A DNA stretch of 64,000 bases from an uncultured Verrucomicrobiae bacterium. Lineage in GTDB: Bacteria > Verrucomicrobiota > Verrucomicrobiia > Chthoniobacterales > JAFAMB01. Under the pieces are notes generated by a model, which was given only the letters and a program-made list of their open reading frames with translations, was not told the origin of the DNA and searched no databases. Each line of letters begins with the position of its first letter. Position 1 is the stretch's first letter. Position numbers and translations under genes: made by a program. Location of the stretch: the NCBI GenBank assembly GCA_963813025.1, contig CAWEXO010000012.1:64001-128000 (forward strand). The letters are read 5' to 3'. Shown in pieces: positions 30,738-36,958 of this stretch.

Positions 30738-30866
30738 AACACAATCTTAGCAGCCTCGGACGAGATGCCAACGGTATTTGAACGCATCGTGTAAAAATTG
30801 ACCATCAGAGAAACTCCAAGATCTGACTTGCAGCCCGACGGCCCTGTGATCTTTCTTTCTCTCGAA

Positions 30867-33302
30867 ATGCGGCTTACCAAGCTCTCTGTTATCTTAGCCG
30901 CGCTTTGCGCGATGCCGGTTCCCCAGGGCCAAGCTGCGCCCGCCGCCGTCCCCAAGCCTTCGGCGAGCGCACCCGTCCTTGTGACGCCTTCTCCCCGACC
31001 AGCGTCTTCTCCGCGACCGGCACCCTCTCCGCGACCGGCGCCCACACCGATTGACCTCCCTGAGATTGTGGAAGAAGCTCAGTCGACCCTCGGTGCTCTT
31101 GCCCAACTTCAGAACGGCCTGAACCCGGACCCGGCGAGCGTGTCGGCTCGTGAAAACCTTTCAACGCTGACCCGCGATATCGATCGGCGAGCGACCGATC
31201 AGGCAAAACTTTCTTCCGAACAAGCCTCGATTGACGCGATCAACCGTTCGCAGGCCGCCTGGGGCGAACTTCAGGACAATCTGGCAACTCTGAATCGAGA
31301 TCTTGCCCGGCGCGCAACCACGCTTGATGCGGACCTCGCGCAATTAAACCAGTACAGCGCCGTTTGGGAGGCAACTGCGGAGGCGACCCGAAAAGCGCAG
31401 ACACCGCCCGAAGTCTTACAGCGAGTCGATTCGGTCATCGCCAAGGTGCACGAAACCAAGCAAGTGGTGGAAAATGCACGAGCCGATATCCTCGGCCTGC
31501 AAAGCCGGGTGCTGGAGCAATCTGACCGCGTTCGAGCCGCTCTGGAGACTCTCCAGCAGTTCGCGGCCGATGCGGCCAAAAGACTCTTTGTACGGGACAG
31601 TCTCCCGATCTGGAATCCGGAGTTTATTGCGCAATCCAGGTGGTCGGAAGAAAATCGGGAAAGCTTTTCGTCGGATCTGGCTTTCCTCCGGGCTTATGTG
31701 GTCGATCGGCCGGGCGCATTTCTGGTCCACGGAGCACTCTTTGTTCTACTGTTCTTTACCATGCGCTGGCTGCGCCGGCGCGTGAGTGCCTGGACCGAGC
31801 AGGAGCCGAGACTCCGGCGGGCCGCGCCGGTGTTTGATGTCCCTCTGGCAGCGGCGATCGCTCTTTCGTTTCTGTTCGTGAGCTTTATCTACCCGCAGGC
31901 ACCCCCGCCGCTCATGGCGATTTTAGGCGCGATCGGCCTTCTTCCGGTTGTCATTATCCTGCGACGGCTGCTTGAACCGGCCCTCTTTCCGGTGCTGTAC
32001 GCGTTCGTGGCCTTCTACTTTGTCGATAGGATACGCATGCTCCTCAGCCCACACCCGCTGCTGGCTCGGTCCACGCTGTTATTCGAGGCAGCCGCTGGGT
32101 GTCTCTTTATTCTGTGGGTGCTGCGCCACAGTGCTCCTCCTGGATCTCGCGAGCGTGAGACCCGAGCTTTTGCCCGCACGTTCCGCGCTGCCCTCACCGT
32201 TCTGGCTATTGGTTTTCTCACCGCGTTTCTGGCCAACGCGCTGGGTTACGTCAATTTCGCGAACTTTGTCATGACGGCCATTCTGCACTGTGCCTATGCG
32301 GCTTTTCTGCTCTATGCAGTCGTCCGAATCCTGGAAGGCTTCACAATTATCGCTTTGGAAACGCGACCCCTGGCTTTGTTCAAGGCGGTCAAACGGTACC
32401 GCGAAGTGCTCCAGCGCCGGATCGGAGCCGTGGTTCAGGCCGCAGTTTTTCTGTGGTGGCTGAGCATAGCCTTGCGCTCCTTCGCGCTGCGCGAAGCGGT
32501 CCTTCAACAGCTCGATACGGTCCTAAACGCTACCTTCTCCCTGGGATCAATCAGCATCTCGTTGGGACGAATCCTCGCCTTTGTCATCGCGATAGTCGGT
32601 TCATTTCTGATTTCCCGCTTTGTCCGTTTCATTCTGGAAGAGGATATCTATTCCCATCTCCGGCTTCCCCAAGGAGTTTCTTATGCGGTCTCGACGCTCC
32701 TGCACTACGTACTGATTGTGTTCGGATTTTTTGTCGCGCTCGGCGCGCTCGGCTTCGACCTCACGAAATTCACGATTCTCGCGGGCGCCTTCAGCGTAGG
32801 CGTGGGGTTTGGCCTGCAAAACATTATCAACAACTTTGTATCCGGCGTTATCTTGCTGTTCGAACGCCCAATTAAAGTCGGCGACGTTATCCAGGTCGAA
32901 ACCGCGATTGGCGAGGTTCAACGCATTGGCATCCGCGCGAGTATCATCCGGACAACCGAAGGATCGGAAGTCATCGTTCCTAATGGCACCTTGATTTCCG
33001 GCCAAGTCACAAACTGGACATTGTCGGGACGTGAGCGAGTTATCGAGATCCAGGTTAGCGTCGCGCGAACAAGCGATTCCGGGGTGGTCACCAACCTGCT
33101 GGTGCGTGCGGCCGCAAACCACTCCGCGATCCTGAAACAGCCTGCGCCGAAAGCCTTCGTGACCAATCTGAGCGGCGCCGCGATGACGTTTGTCCTGCGC
33201 GCCTGGACCGATCGCTATGAGAATTGGGCCCAGGTGCGCGGCGATCTGTCGATTGCGGTCAACGCGGCATTGATGCGGGAGCAGATTGCGTTAGCGGGCT
33301 AG
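30867..33302 (+). CDS. large MscS-family mechanosensitive channel (MscK-like)
   Basis: Signal peptide, Pro-rich linker, coiled coil and many TM helices, then GAFSVGVGFGLQNIINNFVSGVILLFERPIKVGD and IVPN..LI...VTNW. Confidence 0.95.
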   Translation: MRLTKLSVILAALCAMPVPQGQAAPAAVPKPSASAPVLVTPSPRPASSPRPAPSPRPAPTPIDLPEIVEEAQSTLGALAQLQNGLNPDPASVSARENLSTLTRDIDRRATDQAKLSSEQASIDAINRSQAAWGELQDNLATLNRDLARRATTLDADLAQLNQYSAVWEATAEATRKAQTPPEVLQRVDSVIAKVHETKQVVENARADILGLQSRVLEQSDRVRAALETLQQFAADAAKRLFVRDSLPIWNPEFIAQSRWSEENRESFSSDLAFLRAYVVDRPGAFLVHGALFVLLFFTMRWLRRRVSAWTEQEPRLRRAAPVFDVPLAAAIALSFLFVSFIYPQAPPPLMAILGAIGLLPVVIILRRLLEPALFPVLYAFVAFYFVDRIRMLLSPHPLLARSTLLFEAAAGCLFILWVLRHSAPPGSRERETRAFARTFRAALTVLAIGFLTAFLANALGYVNFANFVMTAILHCAYAAFLLYAVVRILEGFTIIALETRPLALFKAVKRYREVLQRRIGAVVQAAVFLWWLSIALRSFALREAVLQQLDTVLNATFSLGSISISLGRILAFVIAIVGSFLISRFVRFILEEDIYSHLRLPQGVSYAVSTLLHYVLIVFGFFVALGALGFDLTKFTILAGAFSVGVGFGLQNIINNFVSGVILLFERPIKVGDVIQVETAIGEVQRIGIRASIIRTTEGSEVIVPNGTLISGQVTNWTLSGRERVIEIQVSVARTSDSGVVTNLLVRAAANHSAILKQPAPKAFVTNLSGAAMTFVLRAWTDRYENWAQVRGDLSIAVNAALMREQIALAG

Positions 33303-33332
33303 CTTAGCTAGACATATCGCTCTGGTATTTTG

Positions 33333-35235
33333 ATAGGGGTAGGGACGCCGGATTAGCAGCGCCCCTCCCTCCGAACCGGACTGGCGGATCTCCCGCATCC
33401 GGCTCTCCAGTTGGTGGTTAACTTCTAAGAAGATCGGCAAGCCACACGATGTGCTTGTCGTAAGGAAAACAAGCCCACTGTGGAGAAGTAGGTGTTGGGC
33501 CAGAGTTGATGATCGCTTCCGCGACCGTGTCCTTCTTTGCCCATCCGTTGACGCAGGATACTGCGCAGACGGCCCCGGGTGTATTTGTCGACGGCTCCGA
33601 AGACAGGGCTTTTACTGTGCTTGAAGTACTCGAACCAGCCGCGCAGGCTTTTATTGAGATCCGCGCAGATGGCCTGCAGACTACGGCCCTCGCTGCGACG
33701 GGTCTTTTCCCGGATTGTGTCCTTCAGTTTATCCATGCTTTTCTTTCACGGCCATTTCATGTCCCGCTCAAAATGGTAACCCAGGAAGTCGAAGCCTCCG
33801 GGTTGACTGGCATCGACCAGTCGGGTTTTGTGCGGGTGCAGGATTAGACCGTTTGCTTCTACCCAATGGCGAACTTCTTCGAGGGCTCTTTGGGCTTGTT
33901 GTTGGTCGCGACACAGCACGATGAAGTCATCGGCGTAGCGTACCATTTCAAAGCTCTTTTGTGCCATTTGCCAGTCCAATCCATTCAGATAGATATTCGA
34001 TAACAATGGACTGATGACCGCTCCTTGCGGTGTGCCTTGCTCGGTCGGTTGCCATCCTTTAGCACTGTCCATGACTCCGGCCTGGAGCATCTGTTCCAAG
34101 AGTCCCAACACCCGCCCGTCCGCAATCTTTTCCTCGATGCACTGCAGCAAAGCCTTTTGCGGAATGAGGTCAAAGTAGGATTTCAAATCCGCATCGACCA
34201 CCCAGTGATAGCCGCTTCTGAGCAGCTCCTCGACTCGGCGCAGTGCGTCCTTGCATCCTTTGCCCGGTCGGAACCCATAGCTTTGCGGAGCAAAATCGCG
34301 TTCAAAGATCGGCTCAATCACTTGGAGCAGGGCTCCTTGGACGATGCGATCCCGGACCACCGGTACTCCTAGCGGCCGCTTCTCTTGACTCCCAGGCTTT
34401 GGAATCCAGACCCGTTTGACTGCTTTGGGCTGATATTGATTGGCTCGTAGTTCTTGCTCTAACTTCCTGATCGTCTGGTTTTGGTGGACTTGGACTTGGT
34501 GCACACTCTGGGAGTCGATCCCAGGGCTGCCGCCTTTGGCCACCACCTTTTCCAGCGCTCGAGTCAGATTCTTTGGACTCCAGACTTTATCAATCAACCG
34601 AAACCACTTTCCTCCTTCAATCCCCGTTTCCAGGGTTGCCAACATGCGTTCGGTCCAGGCCACTGGTTCGACCCAGGCCCACCGGGCACGGATCTCTCCC
34701 CCTTGTGGAGCCGTTGCCGGCACTACCGAGGGTTTGGGTTCCTCTGTCCTGACTTTCACGCTTCCACCTTCCTGCCTCCCTTGGCTCCACGGGCGTTACC
34801 CCGCTTCTTTGCTACTACGAAGGCTCTGTCACCTTCCGGACGCGGTTCTTCGGACTCTCTGCTGGTCATGAACGCCGCTCCTTTCCCGGATCGTGATCCC
34901 TGGTTACTGTCGCTCCAACTTCTGACCATTCTATTTCCAACCACCCCATGCACTCCGTTCTCCACGCTCACTGTCTCGTCCTAGAGCCGGTCGCTTTGTT
35001 GCCGTTTTCCCTTTCCGGGCAGCTTTCCGTTCTGGGCTTCGCCTTTCACTCGCAGGCTCGCCAGTGCATTAGGCCGAATCGAATTCACCATTGTTTTAGT
35101 TATGGACTGGTCATTCGTCTCCGGTTGCTCTCCACCCCGTCTCTCGACGACGCAGTTACCTTCGACTACGGACAGCCAGTGCTTCTGTCCGATGGGGACT
35201 TCCACCCCACTGTTGGTGCGCCCTCCCAGGCGCAC
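33333..35235 (-). mobile_element. group II intron, class C (IIC), apparently full length (~1.9 kb)
   Basis: 5' end GTGCGCCTGG at 35235. Domain V/VI GAGAGCCGGATGCGGGAGATCCGCCAGTCCGGTTCGGAGGGAGGGG...CCCTACCCCTAT ends at 33333. RT lacks an endonuclease domain, and a hairpin sits 4 nt upstream of the 5' end. Confidence 0.93.
33425..34759 (-). pseudogene. ltrA: group II intron reverse transcriptase/maturase with an in-frame TGA at 33748-33746
   Basis: KRVWIPK, RPLGVP..RDRIVQ, SYGFRPG, GTPQG.VISPLLSNIYL, VRYADD and FDFLGY. W-P-TGA-K-K-S-M continues in frame into the thumb domain (LRGWFEYF). Confidence 0.92.
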
Positions 35236-35393
35236 GAGTGCGTGCGACTTGTCGCACGCTTTCAGTCCGCCTGGAGCGCGGACTGGACCGAAAAAAGAAC
35301 CATGGAATGGAGACAGCCCGGCCGAAAAGGCCAATTTGTTGACGAACAGCGCTCCGCACCGTTTCAAAGCGGCGACAGGTCACACGCAGTCCA
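35236..35393. repeat. inverted pair of REP-like palindromes, the first interrupted by the intron
   Basis: (TTTTG|)GAGTGCGTGCGACTTGTCGCACGCTTT at 35236-35262 and an inverted copy AAAGCGGCGACAGGTCACACGCAGTCCA at 35366-35393, with 4 differences. Confidence 0.8.
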
Positions 35394-35784
35394 CCCGTTT
35401 ACTGCTCGAGCTCCCGGGCTACCAAGGATATCAAGTCTCCTGAGCGATACGGATGTCTACCGAGAGATCATCGCCCTTCTTTAACCGGGATCGGCCATGG
35501 GTGCGGATAGTAAACGTCCGTGGGCCCGAGAGGGTCGCTTCCACGATCCCCGCGCCAATCTCACTTTCCTGGAAGACGGGGCGAGCAGACTCCCAGTTGA
35601 TAACGTCCTCCTCGAGTTTCCCATCCAAGAGCCAGGTGTCCGTCGCTTTGTCCGGTTCGGATTCAGGATCTTCTTTCATCGCTTCCTCAATTTTGCCGCG
35701 AATTTTCTTCATCAACCCTTGTTCGCATAGCAAACGGACTTGGCTGTATTAGAGAAAGCAGCCTGGACTGGATCCAGCAGGCCG

Positions 35785-35909: not shown

Positions 35910-36287
35910 TTACTGGACGAGCTTTAACCCATGAGGCAGGAAAACTTTGAAATCTTCTGTATTTGAGGTGGCTAGTCTTGCTCCCGCGACAACGGCCGTC
36001 GCAGCAATCATCGTATCTACTCTGAGATGCCGGATTCTGCCGATGCGGTTGAAGAGCCGAGCGGCTTCCGTGGCCTGGATTTCTTCGAATGCTGAAATTC
36101 CGCCGGAAAGAAAAGCACGAATCGCATTAATTTGCGGTCCGGTGACTGGACCGCAAAGAAATTCAAACCAGGCTGGAGCTGCGCAAAGCAGCTCTTCACC
36201 TGCTTGGTGCCACTGGATGAGCTGGGCAGACTCGGGTGCATCCTTGACTAGGCCGCGAACAAGGTAATTCGTATCAAGAGAGATCAT
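35910..36287 (-). CDS. vapC: PIN-domain toxin, VapC-like
   Basis: ISLDTNYLV, WFEF.CG, DTMIAATA and LATSNTEDF acidic PIN motifs. Overlaps the upstream gene by ATGA. Confidence 0.92.
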   Translation of the reverse strand: MISLDTNYLVRGLVKDAPESAQLIQWHQAGEELLCAAPAWFEFLCGPVTGPQINAIRAFLSGGISAFEEIQATEAARLFNRIGRIRHLRVDTMIAATAVVAGARLATSNTEDFKVFLPHGLKLVQ

Positions 36288-36553
36288 TTGCCTCTCCAGC
36301 GCTTTCTATCTGCGTAGACTTGAGCCAGATAGGATTCCGCTCTCTTCGGATCGAGGCCCTCTCCTGATTCTTGCAGGTGACGAAGCATAGTTACCGGATC
36401 AGATATTTGCGGTTCAGGTTGCGCTTCGGCTTGAGCGACGGCCCGCCGCACCACCTCCGCCTGGGAAACCCGCCAGCGAAGCGCGAGAAGCTTCAGGCGA
36501 CGAATCGTTTTGTCATCCAGCGCGAAGGTGGTGCGATACTTCATGGCAGCCAT
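36284..36553 (-). CDS. ribbon-helix-helix (CopG-like) antitoxin
   Basis: KYRTTFALD...LKLLA....VSQAEVVRRAV RHH pattern; coupled to the PIN gene. Start is 36553 or 36544. Confidence 0.85.
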   Translation of the reverse strand: MAAMKYRTTFALDDKTIRRLKLLALRWRVSQAEVVRRAVAQAEAQPEPQISDPVTMLRHLQESGEGLDPKRAESYLAQVYADRKRWRGK

Positions 36554-36958
36554 ACCATCACTGCATACCATCACCTTAGCGGCCTGTCGAGGCAATGTTT
36601 CAATTTCGGTGTGACCTAAGGTCGCCCTGTACTTAAATCGTAGACTACTGCACTTAATTCGTGGACTGATTTCACCCCTGAATTTCGGGTGTTGCAAAAT
36701 TCCGAAAACTTCCGCAGGTCTCAAGTTTGCTGCCCGGCAAACCAGGACGTAAGGACTCCCGAGTCTTGTCAAGGCTGTCAGTTGCGCGCATCCGATTCAT
36801 TTGGATGTCCGAGCCGCCAACGGTGTTAAGCGCCAGTCCTTTGAGGCCGCGAGCGACAGGCCGCTCGCCAGATAGAGCACGCCGGCAGCTACAAACTCGG
36901 CCGCTTGCCGATGACGTTGTAGCACGTTGTCAGCGCGGCCCTCCTCCAGACATATTGT

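Follow-up and report, generated by a model that had tools for sequence, protein, structure and literature searches.

The window analyzed is a stretch of 64,000 nucleotides from an uncultured Verrucomicrobiae bacterium, whose genome is referred to below as G000. Positions 33333-35235 are occupied, on the minus strand, by an En-less group II intron of 1,903 nt that belongs to an 'Unclassified' lineage near class C. Read on its own strand, the intron starts with GTGCG at 35235 and ends with CCCTAT at 33333; the GUGYG start, the AY end, domains V and VI (33333-33407, minus strand, Rfam RF00029) and an ORF for a reverse transcriptase (RT)-maturase identify it as a group II intron retroelement. Domain V carries an AGC triad and a 5-nt GAGAU loop. 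EBS1 (GAGUG, intron nt 185-189; 35047-35051, minus strand) is the loop of a conserved stem and pairs with exon positions −1 to −5 (CACTC), and EBS3 (G295; 34941, minus strand) pairs with the +1 C of the 3′ exon. On the left, an intact MscS-family channel gene (30798-33302, plus strand) has its stop 30 nt before the intron. On the right lies a small convergent ORF (35431-35733, minus strand) with no Pfam match and 85% DNA conservation in the congener (G001). Farther right, a PIN-domain gene and an upstream ribbon-helix-helix gene (35910-36772) form a VapBC-like toxin-antitoxin pair.

The RT part of the intron-encoded protein, with a YADD motif, extends over 33746-34759 (minus strand, PF00078). 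The ORF is interrupted in frame by a premature TGA (33746-33748) after codon 337, which had been overlooked in the preliminary description; beyond this stop, the maturase/X domain continues in the same frame (33425-33745, minus strand, PF08388) and is not followed by an endonuclease domain. Close homologs of the protein are intact, and an intact homolog scored 381 bits against TIGR04416 (cut-off 300). By BLAST, the genome holds only one other copy of the intron (G000:C14:295321-297226), which is 97.7% identical and carries frameshifts as assembled (G000:C14:295797-297131). Both copies thus have broken RT genes in the assembly, which could represent either real decay or assembly error. An unrelated group II RT is represented by a short fragment (G000:C13:506741-506857).

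Removal of the intron rejoins TTTTG|GAGTGCGTGCGACTTGTCGCACGCTTT as a hairpin, as previously claimed, and shows that a REP foot is split at CACTC|CAAA, the junction lying 4 nt past the end of the stem on the intron strand, also as claimed. The occupied REP arm, which serves as the 5′ exon, comprises a bulge-free hairpin and the GAGT of the foot (35236-35262, plus strand). The 3′ exon, CAAA on the intron strand, is located at 33329-33332 (plus-strand coordinates), and the split GGAG foot has its first G at 33332. The inverted second REP and the additional hairpin were likewise present: the partner arm of the REPIN is found at 35366-35392 (minus strand; three mismatches to the consensus), and the hairpin at 35263-35285 (plus strand) is of the type that follows REP arms of this GGAG-footed family. 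No terminator-like site was called at the occupied hairpin, and relatives of the intron use REP-type feet, not poly-U terminators.

The REP consensus GGAGTGCGYGCGACTTGTCGCCGCTTT was matched 74 times in the host genome at up to five mismatches, with 59 matches having zero or one mismatch; because the reversed-sequence control gave none, these matches are not due to chance. Fifty of the 74 matches form 25 foot-out inverted pairs, most of them 148-163 nt long. Only nine of the 74 copies lie inside ORFs of at least 300 aa, versus a genome coverage by such ORFs of 57%. The preliminary description of the target as a dispersed, mostly intergenic REP/REPIN is thereby borne out: the repeats of this family are short palindromes present in many copies, each with a foot of four nucleotides, and they are found mostly between genes and in inverted pairs. 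At up to three mismatches, 68 copies were counted in G000 and 252 in the congener; the remaining 41 genomes of the family had none, so that the REP is present in two of the 43 genomes searched at this level. In a phylum search of 401 genomes, one REP variant occurred as single copies in two other genomes, with no RAYT match nearby. Double-footed full palindromes resembling collapsed REP pairs were observed at G000:C14:220017-220044, G000:C9 near 117939 and G000:C15 near 32736, and in the congener at G001:C5:206196 and G001:C8:86387.

The foot of a REP is the part that is read by RAYT-type transposases. The search for a RAYT accompanying the target repeat gave no candidate: in neither G000 nor G001, each approximately 80% complete, was such a gene found flanked by the GGAG-footed REP. 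Of three Y1_Tnp loci in G000, none carried it, their flanks holding other repeats; of ten in G001, none was flanked by it, a single copy being situated 1.1 kb away from one locus. In G061, one of the genomes carrying related introns, the target REP was found at two of nine RAYT-like loci, which is about chance level given its 351 copies there. RAYT-like genes of G000 were seen within arrays of a second, GTAG-footed REP (L002, G000:C5:183910-187140; L003, G000:C14:329317-332538), which has 45 copies in the genome and is used by neither intron copy. Another RAYT-like gene (L001, G000:C11:984269-987493) is bordered by a 23-nt inverted repeat, the core of which occurs eight times in the genome.

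No empty allele was found in the congener, where the orthologous gap contains neither the REPIN nor the intron; this suggests that the REPIN came into the host lineage and the intron afterwards. In three sequencing runs, the 5′ junction had no coverage and no joint skipping the whole intron was detected; one DNA run, with a small share, and no RNA run were listed as containing this DNA. In runs X2 and X3, contigs join domain V to a point near the ORF start, a hint of ORF-less relatives in soil.

The second intron copy is inserted at the same base, CACTC|CAAA, of another REPIN, and the surrounding flanks of the two copies are unrelated. This shared junction might stem from a DNA-level event, namely REP recombination or a RAYT moving the REPIN with its cargo, in which case the two sites would not be independent insertions. 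Over 27 nt, both copies indeed have the same rare bulge-free variant of the REP, and the 3′ exon CAAA is found at both. However, the flanks diverge past these 27 nt, so no REPIN spacer moved along, CAAA occurs at 18 of 60 REP sites, more often than any other context, and the two copies differ by approximately 2% throughout. In addition, two genomes with relatives of the intron each contain 14 dispersed loci, the flanks of which differ. A DNA-level origin of the second copy is accordingly regarded as most improbable.

The usual REP, represented by the family consensus, is not perfectly paired: in the arm adjoining the foot, one base is bulged out. At both occupied sites an extra base stands opposite this bulge, resulting in an 8-bp stem with a folding energy of −10.6 versus −6.6 kcal/mol. 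This bulge-free form with its TTT tail, which had escaped the preliminary description, is confined to the two intron-occupied sites: it was found at no empty site in G000, nor in 400 other genomes, including the congener with its 252 REPs. A few empty sites have bulge-free forms of other kinds: two have lost the bulged base, and some are double-footed palindromes. The extra base may reflect a preference for unbulged stems, a template switch at insertion, or conversion between the two copies extending into the REP. The shared extra base is exactly the product that a template switch would leave if the strand complementary to the intron were copied from the foot into the hairpin. As a general rule, 'insertion always perfects the hairpin' was discarded: the intron of the congener and relatives such as L153 keep their bulges, so a bulge-free hairpin does not characterize the clade.

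Relatives of the intron were gathered from 61 kin genomes, a species-genome collection and metagenomes, taking the best 80 from each of the latter two. This yielded 155 loci with at least 47% protein identity, and those with a located 5′ end were deduplicated, resulting in 87 distinct sites. The EBS1/IBS1 pairing anticipated earlier holds across this set: intron positions 185-189 are Watson-Crick complementary to exon positions −1 to −5 in 98, 89, 94, 95, and 76% of cases (n = 87), and EBS1 was assigned from this covariation. Four positions thus pair in 89-98% of sites, and the fifth, at 76%, has high mutual information; in the window intron, all 5 bp are formed. For EBS3, position 295 is complementary to exon +1 in 93% (n = 76). 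As no run of pairing was detected at exon positions −6 to −18 of the relatives' sites, the intron has no recognizable EBS2. The last 40 nt of the 5′ exons fold at a mean of −7.6 kcal/mol (n = 94), versus −3.5 upstream and −4.3 in the 3′ exons (n = 66 each).

These features agree in part with class C, and the preliminary description had presented the element as a class C (IIC) intron in which a REP takes the place of the terminator. According to the available text of Toor 2006 and of Zimmerly and Semper 2015 on class C introns (B.h.I1, GsI-IIC, E.r. IIC 7uim, and the IIC-attC introns), these share with the present intron the absence of En and EBS2, the use of EBS3, a stem-loop before IBS1, where IBS2 would be, and many intergenic sites. 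The nearest solved RTs are also of class C (7uim, 214 bits; 6ar1, 209), followed by 6me0 (160) and LtrA (135). However, class C as defined in the accessible part of Toor 2006 has a CGC triad, a domain V distal stem shortened by 2 bp, an 11-nt bulge with AGGAA, an EBS1 of 3-4 bp and no EBS2. In the window intron and its clade, the triad is AGC, as opposed to CGC in two class-C-like references. Domain V is full-length with a 5-nt loop and an unshortened distal stem, and AGGAA is absent from the first 300 nt of the intron, where a conserved AAC bulge is found instead. Three defining features are hence contradicted, and the target differs as well, being a REP foot and not a poly-U terminator or attC. 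EBS1 forms 5 bp in the window intron, the fifth position pairing less often than the other four across the 87 sites. The RT falls outside the class C clade in both of two quick trees; these were computed without bootstrap, had a single labelled reference and four BLAST neighbours to represent class C, and included no g6 member. The RT groups (100 SH-aLRT) with the intron of Paraburkholderia pBN3 and is separated from the references for classes C, D, E, F, and G. Altogether, the intron resembles class C in its way of working but does not belong to it, and the class C label could not be upheld; that we are dealing with an ordinary IIC intron is considered very unlikely.

The pBN3 intron is labelled 'Unclassified' in the available text of Miura 2022 (PMC8919778) and is the closest labelled relative, with approximately 50% aa identity to a close homolog and membership of the same 100-supported clade. 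Table 3 of that paper, as far as available, gives 'Unclassified' without a split into U1/U2/U3, and the assignment of the window intron to this group holds at the level of that label. The same source places types U1, U2, and g6 close to class C and describes them as frequently located directly downstream of predicted terminators; REPs, EBS1 length, and a missing EBS2 are not named for these types in the text available. With class E/F introns such as Ge.ur.I1 and Pe.th.I2, the accessible text of Nagy 2013 (PMC3753933) indicates a common 5-nt domain V loop and an En-less RT of approximately 440 aa. Unlike the window intron, classes E and F have their own defined EBS2-IBS2 pairing in that text, and in the RT tree the E, F-g2, and F-g3 references occupy other branches.

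Applying a loose foot rule, and with many of the 87 sites coming from two genomes, 54 of the 87 junctions split a reversed GTAG/GGAG-type foot, nine lie just after one, and 24 are in something else, some of these 24 in other repeats. Copy numbers could be counted for few metagenome sites. Where countable, the target motif is abundant in its own host, with 351 copies in G061, 347 in G062, 76 in G018, 74 in G025, 28 in G005, and 22 in G013, reversed controls giving 0-1; the AGCCCAGGG motif was rare in four of the five genomes tested (0-5 copies). The expectation that CACTC|CAAA would be common to all relatives did not survive: among the 87 sites this junction is confined to G000, and the relatives' EBS1 sequences differ and are matched to other repeats. 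In total, 26 types of EBS1/EBS3 combination were distinguished. The copy on the Paraburkholderia plasmid follows a hairpin between integrase genes and is not in a REP, and one site in G062 (L053) has no hairpin. Gammaproteobacterial members of the clade (L061, L063, L064) were seen to terminate hairpins of a GTCAT type, which are similar to the CGTC family of repeats, and at L139 and L165 the end of one intron is directly joined to the start of another, representing tandem copies, circles or assembly loops.

The strongest independent example is provided by the congener, which contains a different intron, with 56% aa identity, a branch of its own and YAND instead of YADD. Two of its 5′ junctions were located; each is at CACTCC| in a REP of the family used in G000, one base beyond the position hit there, and the EBS1 loop reads GGAGA. 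A third copy has no 5′ end. Near 699873 on G001:C1 (L300), the end of an intron copy reads CCCTACC and the adjoining bases are ACTCC, which looks like a replacement of the last five bases by a repeat of the target foot.

The contribution of the hairpin to target choice was estimated in the host genome. CACTC|C occurs at 1,836 sites, of which 60 are REPs; with a hairpin of −6 kcal/mol or stronger just upstream, 88 sites are left and 49 of these are REPs. A six-base match alone would seldom reach a REP twice, whereas six bases and a hairpin would readily do so. Such figures also fit a simpler account, in which the intron would enter any hairpin followed by a matching 6-mer, REPs being the commonest intergenic hairpins and insertions into genes being purged, with EBS1 drifting and not selected to follow feet. 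As approximately 56% of the hairpin-filtered candidate sites in G000 are REPs, two hits out of two would be obtained by chance with a probability near 0.3; sites outside repeats, or not counted as repeats, do exist among the relatives, and the available text of Toor 2006 has class C inserting after 'other inverted repeats' too. Yet EBS1 itself matches the foot in its five commonest types (56 of the 87 sites), which start with UAG, UAA, UGG, GAG or GUAG, and drift would not yield such a match. Moreover, the same foot is used by two distant introns in two congeners, their registers being offset by one base. Generic hairpin targeting with survivor bias is therefore judged unlikely, though less so than the class C and DNA-level accounts.

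What is observed is an intron from outside class C that targets hairpins and has inserted precisely; its guide code can be measured and, in different hosts, corresponds to REP feet. The explanation that we favor, and consider probable, is that an En-less intron of an unclassified lineage beside class C sits in the foot of a REP hairpin by means of a five-base EBS1 and a one-base EBS3, and likely reads the shape of the hairpin in place of a second pairing. Precursor RNA would be supplied by read-through of the convergent minus-strand gene. The intron RNA and the RT would then reverse-splice into single-stranded DNA, probably at a replication fork, at a hairpin followed by CACTC|C, the hairpin presumably being recognized by the protein, and cDNA synthesis would start from a primer supplied by the fork. 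In the test for lagging-strand bias, strand bias was weak: both copies in G000 are on the G-rich strand, and G-rich flanks were found in nine of 14 cases in G061 and seven of 14 in G062. Since more than half of the sites with a hairpin and CACTC|C in G000 are REP arms, the intron can reach these repeats without a REP-specific factor. Across the lineage, EBS1 has changed many times, the new sequence mostly matching the foot or end of a host-abundant repeat where this is countable. Because relatives in several phyla carry a guide matching the repeat foot of their own host, the lineage likely spreads by retuning its five-base guide to abundant, mostly intergenic repeats, and selection for harmless sites may contribute. 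The model is limited by there being only two copies in G000, both with broken RT genes as assembled, and it leaves the bulge-free hairpin at both occupied sites without account.

A stronger version, which we put forward tentatively and rate somewhat below an even chance, has the multi-phylum clade outside class C as a specialized parasite of REP/REPIN elements. Bacterial introns would then have a fourth kind of target in addition to homing sites, terminators, and attC; the EBS1 loop of this clade would have been repeatedly reprogrammed to follow the foot that is read by HUH transposases, often destroying that foot, and in G000 insertion would demand or create the bulge-free hairpin. The available text of Zimmerly and Semper 2015 distinguishes three target specificities for bacterial group II introns and restricts hairpin targeting, outside homing sites, to class C.

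Use of REPs as many-copy intergenic landing sites is shared with the insertion sequences IS1397, ISPpu9/10, and ISPsy8, as described in the accessible text of Tobes and Pareja 2006 (PMC1525189). Those elements are DNA transposons, whereas here an RNA guide within a retroelement reads the foot. A table row in the same source, in its available portion, lists two of nine Pseudomonas putida group II introns as REP-associated, the site, class, and mechanism being left unstated. In the GTAG/CGTC REP/REPIN families, too, according to the available text of Di Nocera 2013 (PMC3733652), the units are short hairpins between genes that carry a 4-nt foot and are frequently paired in inverted orientation; the same text reports GTAG repeats in Verrucomicrobia. 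Unlike these families, the present repeat has a GGAG foot, is found in two of 43 family genomes and had no linked RAYT in the search. Homing to a REP foot was not found described in the literature searched, which left most subscription papers outside; it is not described in the available portions of Toro 2013, Sonbol 2021, Di Nocera 2013, Waldern 2020, Leclercq 2012, an mBio 2024 paper, and a 2026 preprint.

The combination of a IIB/IIF-like catalytic core with class-C-like targeting bears on the timing of EBS2 loss or gain, and on whether a wider group inherited hairpin reading from its ancestor. It also links two mobile systems, as the retroelement uses, and often breaks, the foot of the REP. 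Finally, the 26 natural EBS1/EBS3 types constitute a ready test set for a compact integrator guided by six bases and a hairpin.
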